A program made the position numbers and the translations under genes. From Spirochaetia bacterium (GTDB taxonomy: Bacteria > Spirochaetota > Spirochaetia > WTKD01 > G963693115), in NCBI GenBank assembly GCA_965196605.1, contig CBDAKK010000008.1, positions 539,257 to 603,256 of the forward strand: 64,000 nucleotides of DNA, in the 5' to 3' direction. Each line of letters begins with the position of its first letter. Within the stretch, counting starts at the first letter, position 1. Of this stretch, positions 8,441 to 56,024 are shown piece by piece. The notes beneath the pieces were generated by a model. That model was given only the letters and a program-made list of their open reading frames with translations, made no database searches and was not told the DNA's origin.

Positions 8441-8454
8441 GCTTTGGTGCATGC

Positions 8455-9330
8455 TTGCCTTTGTGGGGGGTGTATACCCCCACGCCCCCCGTGGGTAAGA
8501 TGCGCATTTGCGCTACGCGCGCGAGGCTGCACGCCGTGTGTGTTCTGCTTGCGCCGTTTTTTATGAACGCTTCTGCGGCTAAGACGCTAGCGTGCTACCA
8601 GCGGTATTGTATGAACGTCTCTTGTTGCCACGACGTAGGATGCACTATGAAAACATTTCGGACGGCTGTACTTTCTTTTTTCTTTTTTCAAAATAACGCG
8701 AGCAGAGCGAGCGGGCGCCACTGCTAGATAGTGGAGCGTTAGCGAAACATGAAATAGAGCAAGCGACAACAAGAAAGGTACCAAAGAAAAAAAGAAAAAG
8801 GAGCCTGCGGCTACAGCCGCAGGAACAGTGTTACGCTGCACGCAACATATGAAAACTATACACAAATAAGTTTGTGTGAATGGCCTTCCCCCCGGCGCTC
8901 AATGCGTCCCATCCATGGGGCGGCTGTGATGACGCTCACAAGCGTAGCGAGGGGATGCAAACTATTGCATAAGCGCCGCTGTGCGGTGCAAAGATGGAAC
9001 TTGCATCAAAAGAGTCGAGAGCCGAAGGCGACAGCCGTAGCAGGGATGCTACGTATTGGCTGCCATGGATGGTACGGGTGCAAACTACTGCATAAGTGCC
9101 GCGATGCGGCACAAACATGGAACTTGCACCAAAGTCGGGAGCGCTGACAAGCGCGATCGGCTAGAAACAATTAAAATAAGTGTCGCGCAGCGACACAGAC
9201 ATGGAGCTTATAGCAAACTCGCTAGTCTTATGAGATATGACACGGACAACGCGCTTACGCGCGATTATTTTATTTATATCCGTAAGTACCTTGAGGTGCT
9301 ACACACAAGTGGCGCAGATTTGCTTCAGAT
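8455..9330. repeat. composite intergenic repeat cluster 1. Contains the G-rich palindrome module, the 'cacgccgtgtgtgt...cgcgcgtagcgc' module and about three reverse-orientation copies of the ~98-bp 'gcaaactattgcataagcgccgc' unit
   Basis: These modules recur at 17270-17840, 40064-41230, 43300-44110 and 46460-47300 (see findings). The ORFs within are artefacts of the repeats. Confidence 0.8.
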
Positions 9331-22616: not shown

Positions 22617-23195
22617 CTACTTCTTTTTGAGTTTGTTGCCCATAGAGTCTTCTAATACCGCGCCATTGTCCTTTACCTTCAATTCTCCAGGGACTTTTTT
22701 TCCAAAAGCAGATTTTGGATTTACAACTATTTCTTCCAATTGCTTTTTTACTTTTTTGCGTTGCTCAGGAGATAAAGGTAGGGAGTTTAAAGAAGAAAGT
22801 TGTGTTGTTGCAGTTTTTTTTGTTTCTTCTAGTACTATTTTTTGATCTTCTGTACTTAAGCCTTCCAATGTAGTTTCTAGTGTGTACGCCAATATAACCA
22901 TCCCAGCTCTATCTTCTAAATTTCCTGTTATCTTACCAATCTTGATAAACTTACTATCAAATTTTCTTAAAACAGTTCCAGTAACTTTATTGTTGCTTTC
23001 TCGTTTGAGTTTGAACTGACTAGTTACGTTGTTAGCAGTTCCTTCATACGTGCCGTCTATGTTGACAGACGATGCATTATTGCAGCCCTCCGCTGACATG
23101 GAAATAAGTAGCATGAGACCAAACAAAGCGGCCATTGATGTGATTATTCTTTTCATAGAATACTCCTTTTTATTATTAAAATAATAAGTTGTCAA
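22617..23195 (-). CDS. small lipoprotein, tandem paralog family member 2
   Basis: 192 aa with signal peptide. VNIDGTYEGT and C-terminal KDNGAVLEDSMGNKLKKK, paralogous to 23432..23977. Confidence 0.55.
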   Translation of the reverse strand: MTTYYFNNKKEYSMKRIITSMAALFGLMLLISMSAEGCNNASSVNIDGTYEGTANNVTSQFKLKRESNNKVTGTVLRKFDSKFIKIGKITGNLEDRAGMVILAYTLETTLEGLSTEDQKIVLEETKKTATTQLSSLNSLPLSPEQRKKVKKQLEEIVVNPKSAFGKKVPGELKVKDNGAVLEDSMGNKLKKK

Positions 23196-23431: not shown

Positions 23432-23977
23432 CTACTTCTTTTTGTACTTCTTGCCGGCAGGGTCTTCTAAGCTAGCGCCGTTATCAAGTACTTTGAACTT
23501 GGCCGCCTTGTTGTCCTTAAACGTGTACAAAGTTTTGAATTGAGCGAGAACTTTTCCAACTAATGTTGTATCTGCTGTAGCCGCTGCGCTAAACGCCTGC
23601 TTTAATTTTTGATTAATTTTATCGGGAACTTGTTTCCCAAGTTCTTTGTCTTGCACTGGTGTTACGGATGTGTTGAGTGTAATGCCACCTCCTTCATCTT
23701 TTAGGTCTCCCTTTATATCGGCAACTTTAATAAAGCCAAGAAACCCATTGGCGTTCATTTCTATGGTTCCGCTGACCTTTTTATTATTATCGCGTTTCAT
23801 GGTAATCTTAAGGGTGCCTTGGAATTTTTCTTTTCCAATTAGTGTTTTAAAATTCCCAGCTGGTAGTTCATCGGTTCGTTCGTAGGTGCCGTCTACGTTG
23901 ACGTTTGAGGCGCACTGCGCTGAAATAAGTAAAACAAGCCCCAGTAACGAAGCCATTGGTATGATAATTCTCTTCAT
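23432..23977 (-). CDS. small lipoprotein, tandem paralog family member 3
   Basis: 181 aa with signal peptide. VNVDGTYERT and C-terminal LDNGASLEDPAGKKYKKK. Confidence 0.55.
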   Translation of the reverse strand: MKRIIIPMASLLGLVLLISAQCASNVNVDGTYERTDELPAGNFKTLIGKEKFQGTLKITMKRDNNKKVSGTIEMNANGFLGFIKVADIKGDLKDEGGGITLNTSVTPVQDKELGKQVPDKINQKLKQAFSAAATADTTLVGKVLAQFKTLYTFKDNKAAKFKVLDNGASLEDPAGKKYKKK

Positions 23978-39002: not shown

Positions 39003-40058
39003 CTACTGAAGACGTGAAGGCTTCTTAGGCACGCTTATTTCACCAGCAAGCACCTTCGCCTTGTAGGCTTCAACGCTTTCCAAAAACTCTGCTTCTACGT
39101 TAGGGTTTTCTTCGGGAATAGCAACGCCATTATTTGCTAAGGAAAAAATCAAGATCTCCCCTCCGGGAAACTTTCCTTCATGCGAGAGCTGCGCAACATC
39201 ATGAGAAACTACATCCACGCGTTTTACCATGGAAGTGAGCATAACCGACTTTCCGTCAGCGTATACCCCATCTTGATACTGGTCGCGGTCTACCCCTATG
39301 ACCCAAACAGCCTCCCCTGCCAGTACACGATCTTTTGCTTCTTTAATAGCGCCATTACCCGTTGCTCCCGCTGCTGAAAACACCACACTCGCGCCCGCAT
39401 CATACATTTTTGCCGCAAGCGCCTGTCCAATTTGCGGCGCTGCAAAGTCCCCTGCATACTCGACAATAAGTTCAAGATCTGGAGCAACCGCTTTCACACC
39501 TGCCTCAAAGCCCGCTTCAAATCGGTGTATGAGTTCAAACTCCATACCACCTATGAACCCTACTTTTGTTCTACCTTCTGCCTTCGACTGCAAGCCCGCT
39601 ATAATTCCCACCAGAAAAGAACCCTCCTCTTCATTGAAGATTGCGCTTACCACATTGGGGCCTGGAGCTACTGTGTCTACAAGTAGAAACTGCGTGTCGG
39701 GAAAATTCTTTGAGACTTCTGTCATAGCATCTTGAAACAAAAAGCCCGCCGCAACAATAAGCGTAGCACCCTCATCCGCAAGCGTACTCAAGTTTGGAAT
39801 ATAATCCGCATCCGTACCCGACTGCAAATACTTATATTGGCTTTCGGAAAAGCCATGTTCATTTGCAAATCGCTCAATGCCTTCCCACGTACCTTGATTA
39901 AATGAGGCATCATCAATACCCCCTATATCTGTCACCAAAGCAACTGAGAATTGAGGCTCCTCAGCCTTTTTTTCCTTTGTGCACGCAACGGCAAAAAGGA
40001 CTGCTAGCGCTGTGAACACCGCCACATATATATTATGTTTCTTCATACATTCCTCCAA
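39003..40058 (-). CDS. BMP family (TmpC/PnrA-like) purine-nucleoside-binding lipoprotein
   Basis: Lipobox LFAVAC, then FSVALVTDIGGIDDASFNQGTWEGI, closely resembling Treponema TmpC/PnrA. Confidence 0.85.
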   Translation of the reverse strand: MEECMKKHNIYVAVFTALAVLFAVACTKEKKAEEPQFSVALVTDIGGIDDASFNQGTWEGIERFANEHGFSESQYKYLQSGTDADYIPNLSTLADEGATLIVAAGFLFQDAMTEVSKNFPDTQFLLVDTVAPGPNVVSAIFNEEEGSFLVGIIAGLQSKAEGRTKVGFIGGMEFELIHRFEAGFEAGVKAVAPDLELIVEYAGDFAAPQIGQALAAKMYDAGASVVFSAAGATGNGAIKEAKDRVLAGEAVWVIGVDRDQYQDGVYADGKSVMLTSMVKRVDVVSHDVAQLSHEGKFPGGEILIFSLANNGVAIPEENPNVEAEFLESVEAYKAKVLAGEISVPKKPSRLQ

Positions 40059-40063
40059 ATGTT

Positions 40064-41230
40064 TTAACTATTACCATGGTGATGCTTTTGGCTCGTTATG
40101 TAAAGAATGAACATGCCTAAGCCGAGAGTGGGGGAGCTGCCCCCACGCCCCCCTTGGGGTAAGACACGGTATTGCGCATGAGCGCTTTGTGGGTGAGCGC
40201 CCCCCCACCCCCCTTTGGGCAAGACGCCTCTTTGCGCTATGCGCGAGTGTTTGTGCCATGGCTCACGCGATGTGTTGCTCACGCTATTTGTTGCCAAGCA
40301 GCTATTCTAAATACGCTATTCATTCGGATGGCCGTTCTTTCTTTTCTTTTTTACCATCCATGGCAGCCAATGCGCCCCGTCCATGGGGCGGCTGTGATGA
40401 CGCAAAAAGAGTCGAGAGCCGAAGGCGAACGGGTGCAAACTATTGCATAAGTGCCGCAATGCGGCACAAACATGGAACTTGCACCAAAGAAAGAACCAAA
40501 GAAAAGAAAAAAACATCCTGTGTGCTAAAGCAGTAATGGCATAGATACTGTGCGTAAGTATTAAAAAGTACCCAAGAAAGTCACGAACGTAGTGAGGGGA
40601 TGCAAACTATTAAATGGCGGAGCGAAGCGGTCGCTCGCCCCATGGATGGGGCAAATAAGAGCGCCATGGACGGTGCAGAAATGGAGTACTCGCACCAAAG
40701 AAAGAAAGTAAGCTATCCGAAGATTTAGCATATCGCGCTAGCGCCTTAGTCGCAAAAGGCGTTCACGCAATGCTGCGCAAGCAGAACACATACGGCGTTA
40801 GCCCCCGCGCGTGTAGCTCAGTACAGCGTCTTACCGCAGTGGGGGTGTGGGGGCGTGCTGTCCCCACAAAGGCACGTATGGCACGCAGCGTGTTTCTTGT
40901 GTGGTTCGCTCGGTGTCCCTTAAGTGGTATGTGTATGCCTTGCAAGGACGAAAGACGAAAGCCATAGGCGAAATAAGCAACGCGCTAAGGAAACGCTAGG
41001 AAAACGGAAAACGCTTTGCGCAAAGCGTCATTGCGTAAAAAGGGGGCGGTGGGTGGAAAGCCACGCGGCTCGGGGGCTTGGGGCTCAAGTTGTCATGAGC
41101 CTACGCCTCATGTGTATATTCCGCGGCGCGGCTTAAAGCCTCAAGCAGTTGTCCGCTGTCGCTTGTGCTGCGTACTACACGGTAGCATGAGCCCGCCGCG
41201 CCTACATACGCGCCTTAGCTGCTACTTACA
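40064..41230. repeat. composite intergenic repeat cluster 3 (reverse orientation; includes a second sub-copy at 40740-40900)
   Basis: G-rich palindromes at 40130-40215 and 40838-40872, ~98-bp units at 40370-40500 and 40560-40700, and the 'gtgccatggctcacgcgatgtgttgctcacgctatttgttgcca' module. The ORFs within are spurious. Confidence 0.8.
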
Positions 41231-41615: not shown

Positions 41616-41689
41616 TCCTACCCATGTATTGTAGCACCTCTTTCCATTTTTGCGTTACGTCTGCGCGCGTGGACTACACTGAAGAGTAT

Positions 41690-43294
41690 ATGCCTTGCAC
41701 TCCTTCAAAAAACATGCCCCCCCTGTTGCGCGTGCACAACTTGTGTGTAAGCGCACCCCACCATTCACAGCGCATTGTACGTGACGTGTCGTTTTGCATG
41801 CACCGTGGAGAGCACATTGCGGTCATAGGTGACTCGGGCTCGGGGAAAACAACGCTGCTCAAGGCCATTGCGGGGGTTCTCCCTCATGCGTGGCATGCAT
41901 CGGGTTGTGTGCAGGTGCCGCACCATGAGCTTGCGTACATTATGCAAGAGCCCAAGGCAGCGCTTAACCCCATACGCAGCATTAAGGCCATGTTTGCAGC
42001 GCTGCGTCATAGCAGGCGCTTTGCCGGCATGAGCGCAAAGCAAACAAGCGAGCGCATTAGGCAGCGCATGCATGCAGCATTTAATGCAATGAAACTCATT
42101 GACAATGCTGAGGCAGACCTTGCAAAGAACGGGTCGGGCTTTTCGGACTTACACAACTTGCTTGCAAAGCGCCGTACGCAGGTCTCAGGAGGCATGGCGC
42201 AGCGCATTATGGTGGCCTTGGCCATTACTGCGGGTTCTACGGTGGCACTTGCTGATGAAGTGAGTTCCGCGCTCGATGAGAAGCACGAACGCAAAACCAT
42301 TGAGACCTTGCTTGCCGCTATGCAAGGCGTGCTGTTTGTAACGCATAGAATGAACCTTGTTAAGGACTACTGCCATAAAGTGCTGGTGCTTCAGAATGGT
42401 GCAGTGCATTTTTTTGGTGACGTGGCGCAGTGGTTGCGGGAGCACGGTGATGATGAACACAACGCGGCAGGTGTTATGACGGGGCATGCTAGCACGCAAG
42501 GGCGTAAAAAGAGCCATGCGCGCGCTCAAAACGGCAGCACTGCTAGGCATGGCGGGCTTGGTGGCGTTGTGTTGCGCTGTGAGCGCGTAGGCGTGTACTA
42601 TGACAAGCCGTCGTTTTTGCCACGCGCAACAAGCGGTGTGCGCAACTTTGTGCTGCAAGGCCTCAACTTTAGCGCGCGCGCGCGAGAGGTTGTCTTGGTG
42701 CGTGGCGAAACCGGCTGTGGCAAAAGCACCTTTGCGCATGTGTGCGCAGGGCAGCTTCAGCCTTGCACGGGGGCGGTGTGCATGCATAATACCCCCATGC
42801 CCTATGGTTCGGCGCGTGCCATGCGCATTTTTAGGCGGGACGTGCAGCTTATTTCGCAAGTGCCCTCCTTGAGTTTTAACCCGCTGCGCACGGTGCTCAG
42901 CAGCCTCATGGACGCGCACGCCACAATGTCGCGGGCAGAAAAACAGCGCAGTCAGGAGTACCTGCAGCAGCTGTGTAAGACCATGCACATTTCTCAGGCG
43001 CAGCTTGCGCGCTTCCCCCATGAGCTTTCTGGTGGGCAGCTCCAACGCATCGCCATTATACGCGCCTTGCTGCCGCACCCAAACATCCTCATCCTCGACG
43101 AACCGGTGAGTCACTTGGACCCACGCATACGCATACAAGTGTTGGAGCGCATAGCTGCATTGCACGCACAAACGCGCATAACGCTTATTGTTATTTCGCA
43201 CCTTGAGGAGGTATGCGCCTTTATAAAACGTAGCTATGCGCAATACACCGCCTATGCCCTAGAACATGGCGCGCTTGTGCCGCTTGAAACCTAA
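41690..43294 (+). CDS. ABC transporter ATP-binding protein with duplicated NBDs (DppD-DppF fusion, YejF/GsiA-like). No cognate permease is adjacent
   Basis: GDSGSGKTT/VSGGMAQRIMVALAI and GETGCGKST/LSGGQLQRIAIIRAL. The ORF-track start is 41624; the likely start is MPCTPSK or MPPLL. The gene is notably GC-rich (about 60%). Confidence 0.7.
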   Translation: MPCTPSKNMPPLLRVHNLCVSAPHHSQRIVRDVSFCMHRGEHIAVIGDSGSGKTTLLKAIAGVLPHAWHASGCVQVPHHELAYIMQEPKAALNPIRSIKAMFAALRHSRRFAGMSAKQTSERIRQRMHAAFNAMKLIDNAEADLAKNGSGFSDLHNLLAKRRTQVSGGMAQRIMVALAITAGSTVALADEVSSALDEKHERKTIETLLAAMQGVLFVTHRMNLVKDYCHKVLVLQNGAVHFFGDVAQWLREHGDDEHNAAGVMTGHASTQGRKKSHARAQNGSTARHGGLGGVVLRCERVGVYYDKPSFLPRATSGVRNFVLQGLNFSARAREVVLVRGETGCGKSTFAHVCAGQLQPCTGAVCMHNTPMPYGSARAMRIFRRDVQLISQVPSLSFNPLRTVLSSLMDAHATMSRAEKQRSQEYLQQLCKTMHISQAQLARFPHELSGGQLQRIAIIRALLPHPNILILDEPVSHLDPRIRIQVLERIAALHAQTRITLIVISHLEEVCAFIKRSYAQYTAYALEHGALVPLET

Positions 43295-43299
43295 GGCTT

Positions 43300-44058
43300 C
43301 ACATGTGAAAGGTTGCCTTGTGTGGCACGCCCCTGCAAAGGCAAGGCACAGGGTGCGGCGCTCCACCGTAGCGTAGTGCTAGGGAGTCTGACAGCACTAT
43401 GTCAGAGAGTCTGACAGCACTATGTCAGGGAGTCTGACGGCACTATGTCAGACACCACCGTAGCATAGTGCGGTACTCCACCGCAGCATAGTGCGCTGCC
43501 GCCTTGCCACATGTGCTAAGACACAGCCCCCCGCAGCACTGAGACGTGTAAGCTGCACGCCGTGTGTGTGATGGCTCACGCTATTTGTACCATTCATGGC
43601 ACACAATGTGTCCCATGAATGGTGAGCAGCGCACTCACACAAACTTACTTCCATACAATCTTCATACTTGCGCACAGTATCTATGTTATTATTGCTTTAG
43701 CACACAGGATGTTTTCTTTTCTTTCTTTGGTTCTTTTCTTTCTTTTCTTTTCCGTCCTGAAAAGAAAAGAAAGAAAGAACGGCCAACCGAAGTGTTTGCT
43801 TAGTGCGCTCACGTCATGGCAACAAGAGGCGTTCACGCAATACTGCGCAAGCAAAACACACACGGCGTGCAGCCTACCCGCGCGTAGCGCAATATAGCGT
43901 CTTACCCCAAGGGGGGTGTGGGGGCGCTCCCCCACAAAGCGCTTATGCACATATAGCGTCTTACCCCAAGGGGGGGGGTGGGGGCGCTCCCCCACAAAGG
44001 CAAGACACAACGCTATGTGGTATGAAGGGTAGTTGCTTTATATATCATGCTTACATTT
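43300..44058. repeat. composite intergenic repeat cluster 4, bounded by 38-bp perfect direct repeats (43241..43278 and 44061..44098)
   Basis: Contains the 23-bp array, the 'gtgatggctcacgctatttgt' module, the 20-bp-arm hairpin 'ttctttctttcttttcttttccgtcctgaaaagaaaagaaagaaagaa' and two G-rich palindromes (43915-43990). Confidence 0.8.
43381..43449. repeat. three tandem 23-bp units, each containing the palindrome CTGACAgcactaTGTCAG
   Basis: Units at 43381-43403, 43404-43426 and 43427-43449, flanked by 'ccaccgtagcatagtgc' motifs (43362, 43454, 43476) that are complementary to the unit core. Confidence 0.85.
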
Positions 44059-44129
44059 GTGCAGTACACCGCCTATGCCCTAGAACATGGCGCGCTTGTG
44101 CGTCTTGAGAATAAAAGTTTACTTTGTGC

Positions 44130-45173
44130 TTATTGTAAGCGCGTTGGTACTTTTGGTATGGTAAGTTTGCCCGATAATACCTGTTGTTTGTAGCGCGATA
44201 CGAGCTCTAAAAATTCCGCGCTTACGTTGGGGTTTTCTTGTGGTATACCCACACCTCCGTTTTCTAGCGAGAATGTAAGTACTTTTCCACCAGGAAAATT
44301 GCCTTGCTTTGCTAAGTTTGCAACATTGTGTGTGGCAACATCTACGCGTTTTACCATGGAGCTGAGAATTACAGATTTGTCTTTAGCGTAAATGCCTTCT
44401 TCATATTGGTCTCTATCAACCCCAATAATCCATACACGTTCTCCGTTTAGTGCACGATCCTTCGCTTCTTTAATAGCACCGTTTCCAGTAGTTGCAGCTG
44501 CGTGAAAAATCACGCCAACGCCAGCGTCGTACATTTTTGCAGCAAAGGCTTGTCCAAGGGACGGGGCAGAAAAGTCAGCGGCGTATTCCACAAGTATTTC
44601 TAAATCTGGTGCAACTGTTTTCACGCCTTTTTCAAACCCGGCTTCAAAACGATGTATCACATCAAATTCCATTCCACCGATAAAGCCTACTTTTTCTTTC
44701 CTTTCTGCTTGTGATTGAAGCCCCGCTATAACTCCAACGAGGAATGAGCCTTCTTCTTCTTTAAACACAGCGCTTACAACATTGGGCTTTGGGACGGCGG
44801 TGTCAATGATGAGAAACTGTTTGGTGGGGAAATTTTGAGCAACTTTTGTAATGGCTTCGGTAAATGTAAAGCCCGCCGCCACAATAAGTGTTGTATCGTT
44901 GTCGGCAAGTGCGCTCAAATTTGGAAGATAATCGGAATGAGTACTTGATTGCACATAGGTATACTGCGCCTTTGAGAGATTTTCTTGAGATGCAAATTTT
45001 GTAATACCTTCCCATGCGCTTTGATTAAACGCCTTGTCATCAATGCCACCTATGTCGGTTACGAGCCCCACAGAAAATGACGTAGATTGTTTTTTAGTAC
45101 AGGCGTTTAAACCGCCTCCCATGATCAATGCTATTGATAGTATGTAGAAAGTCGTCTTCATAAGTTCCCCCAT
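44130..45173 (-). CDS. BMP family lipoprotein, orphan paralog of 39003..40058
   Basis: Lipobox GLNAC, then FSVGLVTDIGGIDDKAFNQSAWEGI. About 60% identical to the first BMP protein, with no adjacent transporter genes. Confidence 0.85.
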   Translation of the reverse strand: MGELMKTTFYILSIALIMGGGLNACTKKQSTSFSVGLVTDIGGIDDKAFNQSAWEGITKFASQENLSKAQYTYVQSSTHSDYLPNLSALADNDTTLIVAAGFTFTEAITKVAQNFPTKQFLIIDTAVPKPNVVSAVFKEEEGSFLVGVIAGLQSQAERKEKVGFIGGMEFDVIHRFEAGFEKGVKTVAPDLEILVEYAADFSAPSLGQAFAAKMYDAGVGVIFHAAATTGNGAIKEAKDRALNGERVWIIGVDRDQYEEGIYAKDKSVILSSMVKRVDVATHNVANLAKQGNFPGGKVLTFSLENGGVGIPQENPNVSAEFLELVSRYKQQVLSGKLTIPKVPTRLQ

Positions 45174-45242
45174 GGTTTCTTATTCAGGGTATCAAATCTG
45201 TATCTTTTTAAAGATAGCAATATTGTATACTACAATAGTTGC

Positions 45243-46457
45243 TTGTTTATGTTTAGGATAATGACTTTTATGAAACTTCTGCTCCGCTTTTATTGCTTGG
45301 TATTCTTAGGGTTTTTTGTGGCTGTGGTTTGTGAGCCGCTCATGGCTCAAGAGATAGATGCACGGCTTGAGACCAAGCAGCAGGATGATGGCTCTGTTGT
45401 CTTTTCTGTTACAAACAATGAGGCTGTGCCTGTGTTTGTAGCGGTGCATTTTACTCAGTTGGATGGGCTTGTTGCAGATAGGGATGCTCCGATTGTTATT
45501 CCGCTTGAGGTGGGAGAGAATGAGGGGGTGCTTGCCTTGCGTCGCAAAGAGAACGCGAGGAGGCAGACCTACCGTGTTTCGTATCATTTTTTGTTTGTAA
45601 ACCCTGCTGAGGTACAGCCTGATGGTTTTTTGTATTATTTGCCTTTTGAGCATGGAGTGAAGCATGTAATAACGCAGGGGTGGCATGGGAGTTTTAGCCA
45701 TAGTGGGCAGAACACGTATGCTGTGGACTTTGACATGCTTGAGGGCGAAAAGGTCTATGCTGCTCGGGAGGGGGTAGTGGTTGCGGTGAAGCGGGACTCT
45801 CGTATAGGTGGGACTTCCCAAGCTTATGCAAAACACGCAAACTATGTGCTTATTCGGCATGCTGATAACACCATAGCGAGTTATGTACACTTGATGTTTA
45901 ATGGTGCGCTTGTAGACGTGGGGCAGCGCGTGGTGCTTGGGCAGCATATAGGCTATGCGGGCAAGACGGGCTTTGCAAGCGGGGCGCATTTGCACTTTGA
46001 TGTGCGCGCGTCTACCTTTGACCGCGGCATGCAGAGTGTTCGTTTTAGCTTTAGAGACAAGGACGGCGCGGCTGTAGAACCACAGGCTTACGCTACGTAT
46101 TATGGGCGCTTTCCCGGCGGTGCGGATTTTACTGAACTCCGTGGAAGCGACATTAGCGCGGCTACCTTTGAGGATCATAGTGTGGAGCTAGCTAGCACCA
46201 CTGCCTTTGATGGGCTGCACATACGTAAGGAGACCTACGACTCGGTGGTGGTGCTTTTTATAGCCAATGCATTTTCGTACGCGGTAGACGCGCGTGTTAC
46301 GCTTACGCTGGGTAATTTGCGCATGGAGCAATCCATGCCCATAGGCGTAGTAATACCCGCTCGTAGGGAAGTCTTTCTCGGTATTGCGCGTATACAAAAT
46401 GCGCGCAAGGGTATTGCCGTGCGTAGTAGCATTCGTTACAACCGCGCACAGGAGTAA
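45243..46457 (+). CDS. M23 family metallopeptidase (second copy) with an N-terminal membrane anchor
   Basis: YAVDFDM...VYAAREGVVVAV...HANYVLIRHADNTIASYVHL...GKTGFASGAHLHFDV. Confidence 0.8.
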   Translation: MFMFRIMTFMKLLLRFYCLVFLGFFVAVVCEPLMAQEIDARLETKQQDDGSVVFSVTNNEAVPVFVAVHFTQLDGLVADRDAPIVIPLEVGENEGVLALRRKENARRQTYRVSYHFLFVNPAEVQPDGFLYYLPFEHGVKHVITQGWHGSFSHSGQNTYAVDFDMLEGEKVYAAREGVVVAVKRDSRIGGTSQAYAKHANYVLIRHADNTIASYVHLMFNGALVDVGQRVVLGQHIGYAGKTGFASGAHLHFDVRASTFDRGMQSVRFSFRDKDGAAVEPQAYATYYGRFPGGADFTELRGSDISAATFEDHSVELASTTAFDGLHIRKETYDSVVVLFIANAFSYAVDARVTLTLGNLRMEQSMPIGVVIPARREVFLGIARIQNARKGIAVRSSIRYNRAQE

Positions 46458-46459
46458 GT

Positions 46460-47300
46460 GCCTTGTGGGGGCACGCCCCCACACCCCCGCGCGTCTTGAG
46501 TGCTAAGCACGGGTTACTTCGTGTTTGTTGCTTACGCTATTTGTGCCATCCATGGCACAGTTGTCGCCTTCGGCTCTCCACTCTTTTGATGCAAGCTCCA
46601 TGTTTGCACCGCACAGCGGCGCTTATGCAATAGTTTGCATCCCCTCGCTACGCTCGCGACTTTTTGGTTCTTTTTCTTTTCTTTTGATGCAAGTTCCATG
46701 TTTGTGCCGCATTGCGGCACTTATGCAACAGTTTGCATCCCCTCGCTACGCTCGCGACTTTTTGGTTCTTTTTCTTTTCTTTTGATGCAAGTTCCATGTT
46801 TGTGCCGCATTGCGGCACTTATGCAACAGTTTGCATCCCCTCGCTACGCTCGTGACTTTGGTACTTTCTTCTTTGGCGCGAGTATTCATACAAACTTACT
46901 TACATACAATCTTCATACTTGCGTAGAGTAGCTATGTTATTACTGCTTTAGCACACAGGAGGCTTTTTTCTCTTTTCTTTGGTACTTTCTTTTCTCTTTT
47001 TTGCATCCATAAAAAAGAGAAAAGAAAGTACAGCCGTCCGAGGCATCATCATATCGCGTCACGCGCCGTGGCAACACAGAGCGTGAGCAACATACCGCGT
47101 GAGCCATCACACACACGGCGTGTAGCTTACTCGCGCGTAAGCGCAGAACGACCAGCAGTAGGGGTGTGGGGGCGTGCTGCCCCCACAAAGGCACGCGTGG
47201 AGCGCAAACAAGGGGGGTGGGTGGGGTGTTATTGCTATAAAATGGGTATTGTCGTATTCTTTTAGGTAGTGATACTTGGGTATTGCGGGTGCTATGTTCC
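46460..47300. repeat. composite intergenic repeat cluster 5, including three tandem ~98-bp units at 46583..46876
   Basis: G-rich palindromes at 46465-46495 and 47160-47225. Units 2 and 3 (46681-46778, 46779-46876) are near-identical. Hairpin 'ctttcttttctcttttttgcatccataaaaaagagaaaagaaag' at about 46985-47030. Confidence 0.85.
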
Positions 47301-55866: not shown

Positions 55867-55939
55867 GCCATCTTAGCTCAGTTGGTAGAGCGCGTGACTT
55901 GTAATCTCGAAGTCGTCGGTTCGACTCCGACAGATGGCT
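55867..55939 (+). tRNA. tRNA-Thr (anticodon UGU)
   Basis: Hand-folded cloverleaf: 7-bp acceptor stem gccatct/agatggc, D arm gctc-agttggta-gagc, anticodon loop cuUGUaa, T arm gtcgg-ttcgact-ccgac. There is one U-U mismatch in the anticodon stem. Confidence 0.8.
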
Positions 55940-55942
55940 AAG

Positions 55943-56024
55943 GGGGAGTTTCCCGAGCGGTCAAAGGGGGCAGACTGTAAATCTGTTGACTTCGTCTTCG
56001 CAGGTTCGAATCCTGCACTCCCCA
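55943..56024 (+). tRNA. tRNA-Tyr (anticodon GUA), type II with a long variable arm
   Basis: Acceptor stem ggggagt/actcccc, anticodon loop cuGUAaa, long variable arm, T arm gcagg-ttcgaat-cctgc. Confidence 0.8.

Follow-up and report, generated by a model that had tools for sequence, protein, structure and literature searches.

The locus examined here raises the question of how the 3′ end of an ABC-transporter ATPase gene, itself intact, came to stand on both sides of ~0.78 kb of non-coding DNA, beside the convergent gene for a BMP-family lipoprotein (BMP2). A first-pass annotation of the window, meaning the whole 64,000-nucleotide stretch that was analysed, had read the arrangement as the footprint of a composite repeat element that inserted, or recombined, into the gene end and duplicated a long target segment. 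The duplication is real, and the insertion reading is partly supported. The features concerned are listed in Table 1.

Table 1. Positions of the features discussed, in window coordinates
Feature	Position	Strand	Remarks
8-kb block, element copy	8446-9142	-	No flanking duplication
17-kb block, element copy	17314-17846	+	No flanking duplication
BMP1, heading a complete BMP ABC-transporter operon	39003-40058	-	Old paralog of BMP2
Block A, inverted element copy between BMP1 and gcvH	40128-40887	-	No flanking duplication
Tandem-NBD ABC ATPase gene, 556 aa, intact	41624-43294	+	ORF, ends ...YTAYALEHGALVPLET*
Copy 1 of gene end	43237-43287	+	Core 43244-43280; weak homology ~43211 to stop 43292-43294
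Left part of block B, hairpin-rich, internally repetitive	43295-43544		No other copy in window
Composite non-coding element, one copy	43545-44004	+	Window BLAST, five-copy alignment
Unique junction, 27 bases	44005-44031		No significant match in window or related loci
Copy 2 of gene end	44058-44108	+	Core 44065-44101; weak homology 44032-44115
BMP2, BMP-family (PnrA/TmpC-like) lipoprotein gene	44130-45173	-	Convergent with ABC
M23 peptidase gene	45243-46457	+	Right-hand synteny anchor
Block C, element copy with 98-bp x 3 array	46458-47225	+	Directly past M23 stop; no flanking duplication

Extent and condition of the two gene ends

The duplication is confirmed, with a perfect core of 37 bp (37/37) in place of the 38 bp first claimed, at coordinates that had been set 2-3 bases too low; the exact 38-mer occurs only once, at 43243-43280, and its second copy at 44064-44101 carries one mismatch, at the first base (A versus G). 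Local alignment of both flanks of the block extends the match to 47/51 bases, with a score of 82 against 16 ± 2.1 in shuffles (z = 31), and dinucleotide shuffles of the window gave zero matches. Beyond the 51-mers, weaker homology continues 5′ at 14/24 positions and 3′ at 15/27 (P ~0.001 in either case), and in a tblastn search ABC residues 530-555 align in frame with 44032-44109 (26 codons, E = 1.4e-6), the weak in-frame homology reaching the stop codon on the copy-1 side. The TAA of copy 1 stands in register with an AAA at 44113-44115 in copy 2, and in the 13 nt that follow the match (7/13) is too weak to claim as homology, so that the duplication is taken to end, on the right, at or near the stop. 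The duplication is thus ~50-85 bp long overall, with its copies 821 bp apart and 777 bp between the cores. Identity between the copies is graded, from the perfect core to roughly 55-70% in the flanks, and a uniform spread of mismatches is rejected (P = 5e-6); the mismatches also avoid the first codon position of ABC (1/16 there, ~0.002, post hoc).

Copy 1 is the native, working gene end. It is continuous with the upstream coding sequence shared with orthologs, aligns through their C-termini (F[IL]Kx[SA]Yx[HQ][FY]TxYxLxxGxL) and ends in ...ALVPLET*, with its stop two codons past theirs. The encoded ATPase is of the peptide/nickel NikD/NikE-like type, with NCBIfam best matches to NikE/NikD/YejF-type models, all under curated cutoffs, and it aligns with the ortholog P0002 at 98% coverage; no permease gene adjoins it, and the GC content of the gene is 0.556 (GC3 0.616). 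The closing strands of the second nucleotide-binding domain, which are conserved, are encoded by copy 1. The intact stop that had been noted in the first copy is borne out by the 556-aa ORF, inside which copy 1 lies, and since this copy has its own stop and stays joined to ABC, the gene was never interrupted.

Copy 2 is a decayed, non-coding relic that has lost its stop codon (AAA in place of TAA) and has an AT-rich, diverged 5′ flank. The end of its core lies 28 bp from the stop of the convergent BMP2, and upstream of 44032 no further ABC-like remnant was found beyond noise (tblastn, E <= 10). The 5′ flank resembles none of the orthologs more closely than it does the ABC gene of the window, and a 14-nt exact match of 44030-44043 to the M23-TPR spacer of the related locus L001 was put down to chance (E = 0.46). 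The ending in ..ALVRLENKS.. that copy 2 would encode had been suggested as the ancestral one, for which the orthologs, stopping two codons before copy 1, give no support; the AAA is a lost stop. A role of the core as a terminator or structured RNA was ruled out by fold scores (z = -1.05 for the core, with copy 2 on either strand no better than shuffles), by a terminator scan in which no terminator-like site was found at either copy, and by Rfam searches at gathering and permissive thresholds, which returned no family and only generic hairpin noise at 43704-43803. A metagenome scan with 33 nt of the core gave no match.

The intervening DNA and its relatives in the window

The DNA between the tails, termed block B, begins directly past the ABC stop and is compound, consisting of three parts. 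The first-pass statement that all of it is repeat-family DNA holds for the composite element; the left part is repetitive only internally and 44005-44057 is unique, which leaves 257 bases of non-family DNA on the left and 53 on the right between the 51-mers and the element. The left part contains three 23-bp units at 43384-43452, each forming a CTGACA-N6-TGTCAG hairpin, and three occurrences of CCACCGYAGCRTAGTGC. Its interpretation as a MITE was rejected, since the only match suggestive of terminal inverted repeats is one of 13-14 nt around the CACATGTG palindrome (z = 1.9), and it belongs to no Rfam family. The element in block B comprises a conserved ~60-nt module, GC-rich modules, an 18-bp polypyrimidine/polypurine hairpin (43735-43776) and two REP-like hairpins GTGGGGGCGCTCCCCCAC at 43918-43935 and 43978-43995. 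The longest ORF between the copies (109 aa) is derived from repeat sequence, and tblastn of the interval found nothing coding apart from the tail. A sigma-70 promoter scan of 43100-45400 gave no site at threshold, and a promoter in the most conserved module of the element, which was included in the scan, is not called.

The element is present in five ordered copies in the 64 kb, 70-95% identical in parts and all confined to five intergenic blocks, and the best match to block B elsewhere in the window reaches 75%. The mosaic REP-like family that it represents is undescribed. Its REP-like palindromes are 18-21 nt long, GC-rich and imperfect, with a GTGG head; the motif GTGGGGG-N4-7-CCCCCAC has seven exact matches in the window against zero expected, all within blocks, with degenerate copies besides. 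The REP stem is nearly self-complementary, and its orientation is read from the flanking modules: the pairs in block A and in block B (43918, 43978) are tandem direct repeats, and in block C the pair, with one member at either end, is inverted. Tandem arrays also occur in the blocks (23-bp x 3, 60-bp x 2 and 98-bp x 3, with 92-96% identity). The five-copy alignment contains no terminal inverted repeats, the 30 window ORFs scanned include no transposase, integrase or recombinase (Pfam) and no RAYT, and a comparison of the commonest repeat 17-mer with genome contigs produced only 28 single matches in unrelated taxa, put down to chance.

A search of other repeat clusters for similar flanking duplications had been proposed, and the other four blocks of the window have none. 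Flank-against-flank alignment of blocks A and C and of the 8-kb and 17-kb blocks gave z < 1.5 throughout; the junctions of block C were moreover mapped by homology to L001, the native spacer resuming at ~47226. Because all four of these blocks lack a flanking duplication, the long duplication at block B is a one-off and not a regular footprint of the element family.

Empty sites and the origin of the duplication

The comparison with orthologous loci that the first-pass annotation had called for yielded empty sites. In the related locus L002, the ABC stop is followed by 53 bp, a convergent BMP2 ortholog (77%) and then the M23 gene, with one tail and no block; in L001 and L034, M23 begins 20 bp past ABC and BMP2 is absent. 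The repeat blocks of the window have no counterpart in the L001, L002 and L034 loci, and intergenic DNA in the syntenic region amounts to 3170 bp in the window versus 647 bp in L001. The empty sites indicate that DNA was inserted behind ABC on the window's branch, with the gene end now on both sides of it. The comparison genomes are distant, with 57-59% amino acid identity in ABC, and the event is therefore dated only to somewhere on that branch.

The BMP2 protein is 77.5% identical to its L002 counterpart, whereas its identity to BMP1, the paralog in the same genome, is only 67% (66-69% at the DNA level), and L001 and L002 (~73% identity) are each closer to the other than to the window; to judge from these sequence relationships, BMP2 is the ancestral neighbour of the ABC tail. 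No conversion tract was found between BMP1 and BMP2 (longest identical run 17 against a null of 14 ± 2.7), which gives no support either way, as none is expected at 66% identity. The BMP2 ortholog in L002 carries an 11-codon C-terminal extension, which, together with the avoidance of mismatches at codon position 1, prompted the idea that BMP2 formerly read through copy 2. This is unsupported, given that BMP1, the BMP protein of L001 and BMP2 all end in ...RLQ*, and this shared ending makes the L002 extension the derived state.

On balance, we regard as probable, with some reserve, an insertion into a tight convergent junction by which the gene end was copied to the far side of the incoming DNA, followed by homogenisation of the core. 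In the ancestor, the end of ABC would have lain a few tens of bases from the stop of BMP2 (14 bp in the geometry of copy 2, 53 bp in L002). Non-coding repeat DNA would have entered at or just past the ABC stop on the window's branch, and the same event, if it was indeed a single one, would have placed a second copy of the terminal ~50-85 bp of ABC, with the stop, beyond the insert, either through widely staggered breaks and fill-in or through a template switch in replication by which the gene end was copied anew. Copy 2, an untranslated relic beside BMP2, has lost its stop and become divergent on both sides of the core. Graded identity is not what a simple, recent duplication of the target would predict, and since a perfect core lies between diverged flanks, a single clean duplication needs an extra process: gene conversion, an att-like core or constraint are possible sources of the core identity, which would most simply reflect later homogenisation by short-tract gene conversion between the two copies. 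As the insert is compound, several events, and not the insertion of one composite element, may be involved; as the other blocks lack a duplication, nothing about the element family would lead one to expect the outcome at block B.

Alternatively, a tandem duplication of the ABC 3′ end by slippage or unequal exchange may have come first, with repeat DNA inserted or expanded between the tails later, so that the bracketing would be incidental and not an insertion footprint, the first tail keeping its working stop. This order of events is unlikely, although it would suit an interval made of at least two unrelated parts, local tandem duplication has been active in the blocks (the 23-, 60- and 98-bp arrays), and the element family inserts elsewhere without long duplications; a non-coding second tail would also have offered a permissive landing site in a very tight convergent junction. 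It needs, however, at least two independent events at the same few bases, and adjacent duplicated tails occur in no relative. Nor does the two-step origin alone account for a perfect core between diverged flanks, a pattern that is predicted by an integration of the type known for e14 at icd, as it is equally by an old duplication with conversion. In such an integration, the element would have brought a diverged ABC end, a crossover in the core would have produced a hybrid copy 1 and a displaced copy 2, and the element would then have decayed to < 0.8 kb and been colonised by repeats. The in-frame, coding-like similarity of the copy-2 5′ flank and the presence of a gene 3′ end at both borders, with the working ABC end intact, fit this reading, and in the precedent the icd 3′ end was supplied by e14 and a 163-bp pseudo-icd′ duplicate was left behind (PMC6379469). 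It is nevertheless distinctly improbable, since the 777 bp between the cores contain no ORF > 109 aa, no integrase and no phage gene, tblastn detects no coding remnant there except the tail, no integrase occurs among the 30 window ORFs scanned, and the copy-2 5′ flank is no closer to the orthologs than to the window's ABC; moreover, the recognisable insert belongs to a repeat family whose four other intergenic copies lack duplications.

It is very doubtful that the 37-nt core has been kept identical by selection on an antisense match between the BMP2 transcript and the 3′ end of the ABC mRNA. The copy-2 core is situated 28-65 nt past the BMP2 stop, and BMP2 read-through that far would carry a perfect 37-nt antisense match. 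If true, the insertion would have split convergent genes whose 3′ ends lay near enough for overlapping transcripts, the duplication would have preserved their antisense coupling in trans, and RNA pairing would keep the two transporter-related genes under mutual regulation. That copy 2 is what remains of another ABC paralog, since decayed, or of a more extensive segmental duplication once located between ABC and BMP2, is highly improbable and largely refuted: the gene-end fragment is in frame with ABC residues 530-555 and BMP1 and BMP2 attest old duplications in the neighbourhood, but the absence of ABC-like remnants upstream of 44032 in the tblastn search and the single ABC directly beside BMP2 in L002 speak against it, and the 37/37 core clashes with the age implied by the flanks. 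An assembly artefact, with the gene end duplicated spuriously in a contig of metagenomic origin, is barely conceivable even though the single 1.14-Mb contig seems to derive from an uncultured organism, because the copies, 821 bp apart and deep in a long contig, have different unique flanks and defined differences, copy 1 fits the ABC body and copy 2 the BMP2 end as in L002, and graded homology is not a product of assembly errors.

Wider context and comparison with known systems

Taken alone, the locus is a minor item of genome natural history, offering a clean filled-site/empty-site case of non-coding repeats entering a near-spacerless convergent junction with neither gene damaged, owing to the duplication of the gene end, and a non-autonomous addition to the few bacterial cases of very long insertion-associated duplications. 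Its setting may be of greater consequence, in that intergenic DNA in the region is five times that of the 1.8-Mb relatives, an expansion attributed to the spread of the undescribed element family. In reduced genomes, the usual expectation is the loss of such elements and not their gain. The lineage has a small genome (1.14-Mb contig) with a marked GC shift.

REP sequences are imperfect palindromes of 20-40 nt, often with a GT[A/G]G head, extragenic and typically situated at gene 3′ ends, and present in > 100 copies per genome (PMC2817692). Like REP, BIME and REPIN sequences, the elements of the window, which end in palindromes with a GTGG head, are strictly intergenic, located just past stop codons and mosaic with other motifs. 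They differ in forming much larger blocks of 0.45-0.8 kb, in which several long modules, not palindromic, keep a fixed order, in what appears to be a mostly uniform orientation of REPs within a block, where those of BIMEs are regularly spaced and alternate, and in the lack of a cognate RAYT among the 30 window ORFs, with copy number assessed from 64 kb only. Long target duplications such as the tails described here are not known from REP/RAYT mobility, and IS200/IS605-type elements generate no larger target duplications (PMC2817692). Classical IS and MITE insertions leave fixed repeats of ~2-14 bp that abut the element ends, whereas the repeat here is perfect over 37 bp, 92% identical over 51 bp and at most ~85 bp long; neither terminal inverted repeats nor the same footprint at other copies, both of which would be expected of such elements, is found.

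The integration of e14 or phage 21 in E. coli icd likewise leaves a gene 3′ end on both sides, with the gene intact and the far copy dead, and the copies are homologous and non-identical outside the core, as they are here. The element e14 is a prophage of the 15-kb class with an integrase; the interval considered here differs in comprising 0.78 kb of non-coding repeats with no integrase, and neither of its flanks is evidently foreign. In FoSTeS/MMBIR, microhomology-mediated template switching leads to the copying of DNA from elsewhere, after which the pre-switch sequence is re-copied. This would predict the topology seen here as a one-off outcome that is not element-specific, although the window holds no near donor of block B (best 75%) and divergence precludes the definition of junction microhomologies. 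The elements IS1549 of Mycobacterium smegmatis and IS1634 of Mycoplasma mycoides are associated with long, variable direct repeats of 8-514 bp, for which no mechanistic model is available (PMC2266710). These members of the IS1634 family are autonomous and encode a large IS4-related transposase, whereas block B has no ORF > 109 aa and no transposase, its sister element copies lack a duplication and its tails are not uniformly identical. The 51-85 bp duplicated here nevertheless fall within the range of that family, and with such long repeats documented, the length is unusual but precedented. The insertion scar is genuine and fairly ordinary, and is unusual only in the length of its duplication and in its identical 37-base centre.

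The Duplicated End of the ABC Gene

The 3' end of the tandem-NBD ABC ATPase gene (ABC) is repeated in direct orientation at an offset of 821 bp, on the far side of inserted repeat DNA (block B), so that copy 1 lies to its left and copy 2 to its right. The perfect repeat measures 37 bp (43244-43280 = 44065-44101), and shuffles of the window yielded no such match. The first-pass annotation had reported a perfect duplication of 38 bp, which is real, but the 38-mer (43243-43280 vs. 44064-44101) is mismatched at its first base and both copies had been placed 2–3 bases too low. Local alignment of one flank with the other extends the similarity to 47 of 51 positions (43237-43287 vs. 44058-44108), with a score of 82 vs. 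16 ± 2 in shuffles (z = 31). Outside the 51-mer, the copies still resemble each other without gaps, both 5' (14/24) and 3' (15/27), with P ∼0.001 for either stretch relative to random window positions; the limits of both stretches were picked post hoc with the data already in view. In tblastn, ABC residues 530–555 align in frame with 44032-44109 (VCAFIKRSYAQYTAYALEHGALVPLE vs. VALYIMLTFVQYTAYALEHGALVRLE, E = 1.4e-6). The duplicated segment reaches the stop codon, because the TAA of copy 1 (43292-43294) is in register with AAA in copy 2 (44113-44115); it starts at ∼43237 at the latest, probably at ∼43211, and is ∼58–85 bp long, the 13 bases 3' of the stop (7/13 identical) being left out.

Copy 1 ends an intact gene with its own stop, as the first-pass annotation had stated, and is continuous with the orthologous coding sequence, its stop lying two codons past those of the orthologs. 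The tail segment encodes a C-terminal motif of the second nucleotide-binding domain that is conserved in three lineages, F[IL]Kx[SA]Yx[HQ][FY]TxYxLxxGxL. Copy 2 is a relic, because AAA occupies its stop position, from which the frame runs for 26 more codons into the convergent lipoprotein gene BMP2, and because the conserved residues are gone from its 5' flank. An ancestral gene ending in the copy 2 tail (..ALVRLENKS..), as proposed earlier, is not supported.

Identity between the copies is graded outward from 37/37 to 5/7 on each side, then ∼50–58%, and then noise. With 22 of 88 positions mismatched, an uninterrupted match of 37 bases would arise with P = 5e-6, and the four mismatches of the 51-mer cluster at its ends (P = 0.02). 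The GC content of the core (0.59) is like that of the ABC gene, and the flanks of copy 2 are AT-rich (0.30–0.33). Sorted by ABC codon position, the mismatches between 43211-43294 and 44032-44115 number 1/16, 8/16, and 7/16 at positions 1, 2, and 3 (∼0.002, post hoc), an avoidance of position 1 that is unlike neutral decay and unlike ordinary coding constraint. Secondary structure was not significant in the core (z = -1.05) or in copy 2 on either strand, and neither tail copy holds a terminator-like site. With this one genome, the perfect core may reflect homogenisation that followed an older duplication, an att-like core of crossover, or constraint.

Features of the ABC-BMP2 junction, the repeat family, and the structural RNA genes in the window
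Feature	Position	Strand	Remarks
ABC ATPase gene	41624-43294	+	tandem-NBD, 556 aa, intact; NikD/NikE/YejF-like by NCBIfam, below curated cutoffs
Hairpin-rich, internally repetitive segment	43295-43544		directly 3' of ABC stop; three tandem 23-bp units, each a CTGACA-N6-TGTCAG hairpin
Block B element	43545-44004	+	one copy of the dispersed composite element; ordered modules
Unique DNA	44005-44031		
BMP2, BMP-family lipoprotein gene	44130-45173	-	convergent; stop codon 28 bp past end of copy 2
8k block	8446-9142	-	ordered modules
17k block	17314-17846	+	ordered modules
Block A	40128-40887	-	ordered modules
Block C element	46547-47225	+	ordered modules
tRNA genes (two, adjacent)	55867-55939; 55943-56024		Rfam, gathering score reached
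RNase P RNA, bacterial class A	62293-62641		260 bits (Rfam)

Related Loci and Gene Neighbourhood

ABC is flanked on the left by gcvH and by a complete BMP transporter operon whose first gene is the paralog BMP1, and to the right of BMP2 follow genes for an M23 peptidase and a TPR protein, mreBCD, PBP2, rodA, and glnS. Two related loci, L001 (1.80-Mb contig) and L034 (1.85-Mb contig), are syntenic with the window over >20 kb and carry the P0002/P0241 cluster, the only close relatives of ABC (53–57% identity) among 5.8 billion database proteins. In both, M23 lies 20 bp after ABC, with no repeat block, second tail, or BMP2. The closest relative of BMP2 (P0122, 77%) is encoded on a third locus, L002 (2.8-kb Logan contig), which in window orientation holds the C-terminal half of ABC (...FIKSAYPHFTDYKLEQGILFEQ, then stop), a 53-bp spacer, the convergent BMP2 ortholog, ∼100 bp, and M23; copy 2 is placed relative to BMP2 as this single tail is. 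Between BMP2 and the L002 protein identity is 77.5%, against only 67% between BMP2 and BMP1; BMP1 and the L001 BMP share 75%. For ABC and M23, L001 and L002 share ∼73% vs. 57–66% between either and the window. These identities and the closeness of L001 to L002 indicate that BMP2 beside the ABC tail is older than the window lineage and was lost from, or never present in, L001 and L034; block B and the second tail arose on the window's branch. The empty site that the first-pass annotation had suggested seeking in related strains is present in these relatives, at genus-or-deeper rather than strain-level distance.

The BMP2 ortholog of L002 has an 11-codon C-terminal extension (1929-1964, …TRLLHKSSKNSP, then stop), and loss of the stop codon trimmed the ABC-BMP spacer there. 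A former reading of BMP2 through copy 2 was considered and is unsupported, since BMP1, L001 BMP, and BMP2, three of the four proteins compared, end in …RLQ. Positions 1-22 of L002 are Illumina adapter at the contig end (AGATCGGAAGAGCACACGTCTG, read as reverse complement), so that the last residues of the called M23 fragment (...RSEEHTS) are artefactual.

ABC has no adjoining permease or binding-protein gene in any genome where the whole locus is visible (window 41624-43294; L001 10001-11656; L034 6001-7659), and the position of this peptide/nickel-type gene between gcvH and M23 is nonetheless conserved. It lacks the C-terminal oligopeptide-transporter domain PF08352 present in its distant matches. 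GC3 of every syntenic gene is well above that in L001 (0.36–0.62 vs. 0.21–0.34; window 30316-55615), a shift in base composition across the lineage, whose genome is small, with a large spread among neighbours (ABC highest, 0.616; BMP2 lowest, 0.362). The closest named relatives of GlnRS are only 57–58% identical and of mixed phyla (including Spirochaetes, Spirochaetaceae MAGs, and Desulfobacterota), and named BMP matches are mostly from spirochaetes. The lineage branches deeply, and its placement among the spirochaetes is tentative. The only Rfam families at gathering score in the window are RNase P RNA and two tRNA genes.

The Inserted DNA and Its Repeat Family

The interval between the tail copies is compound, with three parts (see table) and no ORF >109 aa. 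The hairpin-rich segment also holds three copies of CCACCGYAGCRTAGTGC and folds modestly better than shuffles (z ∼ -1.9, both strands); it occurs only once in the window and has no Rfam match. The composite element occurs in five intergenic copies in 64 kb (70–95% identity) with one common module order: an optional 98-bp-family module, a highly conserved module of ∼60 nt (...CTTCATACTTGCGCACAGTATCTATGTTATTACTGCTTTAGCACACAGGATGTTTT), a long polypyrimidine/polypurine hairpin whose loop carries an insert that varies, several GC-rich modules, and one or two REP-like hairpins (GTGGGGG-N4-7-CCCCCAC). The last motif has seven exact occurrences vs. none expected, every one within the blocks, and three of the five copies have the REP end directed at the start of the following gene. 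The family is absent from the relatives' syntenic loci, where blocks A, B, and C have no counterpart in L001, L002, or L034 except for native spacer; over 25 syntenic kb, the window has 3170 bp of intergenic DNA and L001 has 647 bp. No Rfam family matches the element, and none of the 30 window ORFs scanned encodes a transposase, integrase, or recombinase. This non-coding family is apparently undescribed. Young tandem arrays within the blocks (98-bp × 3, 93%, 46582-46874; 60-bp × 1.9, 77%, 40128-40245; 60-bp × 2, 96%, 43892-43999) show growth by local tandem duplication together with dispersal.

Flank-versus-flank alignment of blocks A, C, 8k, and 17k and of two ordinary spacers detected no duplication (z < 1.5), so flanking duplications of the kind that the first-pass annotation had suggested looking for at other repeat clusters do not occur at these four. 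The block C insert could be mapped from 46458, directly after the M23 stop codon, to ∼47225, because 47226-47264 is again homologous to the native spacer that separates M23 and TPR in L001 and L034 (87% identical, E = 1.5e-7), and its borders likewise show no duplication. The ABC-tail duplication is therefore peculiar to its site and is not the footprint of the element family.

Two further direct repeats were seen. One pair (9457-9578/12533-12661; 122–129 bp, 77% identity) surrounds a 3-kb segment with two ORFs without Pfam match (9981-11567, GC ∼0.52; 11638-12492, GC ∼0.37) and may be a further scar of insertion or duplication, or else a regulatory region present twice. The other (22543-22655/23365-23470; ∼110 bp, 80%) takes in the start, with the upstream region, of each of two neighbouring small minus-strand ORFs without Pfam match (22617-23195 and 23432-23977), probably a local tandem gene duplication.

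Origin of the Duplication and Known Counterparts

The account we favour, with some reserve, is that repeat DNA entered a convergent junction with very little room, at the ABC stop codon or immediately after it, and that the last ∼50–85 bp of ABC were duplicated once alongside, perhaps in a single event. The duplication may have come from widely staggered breaks with fill-in or from a template switch re-copying the gene end, and copy 2 would then have decayed except for a centre homogenised by conversion. No conversion tracts were found between BMP1 and BMP2, and none are expected at 66% identity. Of the first-pass reading, insertion is upheld by the empty sites, and a long target duplication made by the element is not.

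The compound insert and the local activity of tandem duplication would also suit a tandem duplication of the tail that preceded the insertions, which we regard as unlikely. Slightly less likely still is a decayed integrative element of the e14/icd type, which would fit the graded identity but has left no integrase and no coding remnant here. That copy 2 is the stump of a second ABC gene is largely refuted by the L002 locus and the tblastn result, and misassembly is the least credible explanation.

IS1549 and IS1634 produce long, variable insertion-associated direct repeats (8–514 bp) without a mechanistic model (PMC2266710), but they carry a large transposase, which the interval between the ABC tails lacks. 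In e14/icd, the gene 3' end is duplicated at both borders with the gene intact and a 163-bp pseudo-icd' (PMC6379469), the same arrangement as for ABC, although the integrase-bearing element is absent here. Like REP/BIME sequences (PMC2817692), the composite element family has GC-rich, imperfectly palindromic sequences headed by GTGG, lies outside genes, and forms mosaic blocks, but it differs in its long, ordered, non-palindromic modules. The remaining interest lies in the perfect core and in an apparently undescribed repeat family that is spreading through a small genome; the feature as such adds a fresh case to kinds of events already known and does not represent a new kind of system.
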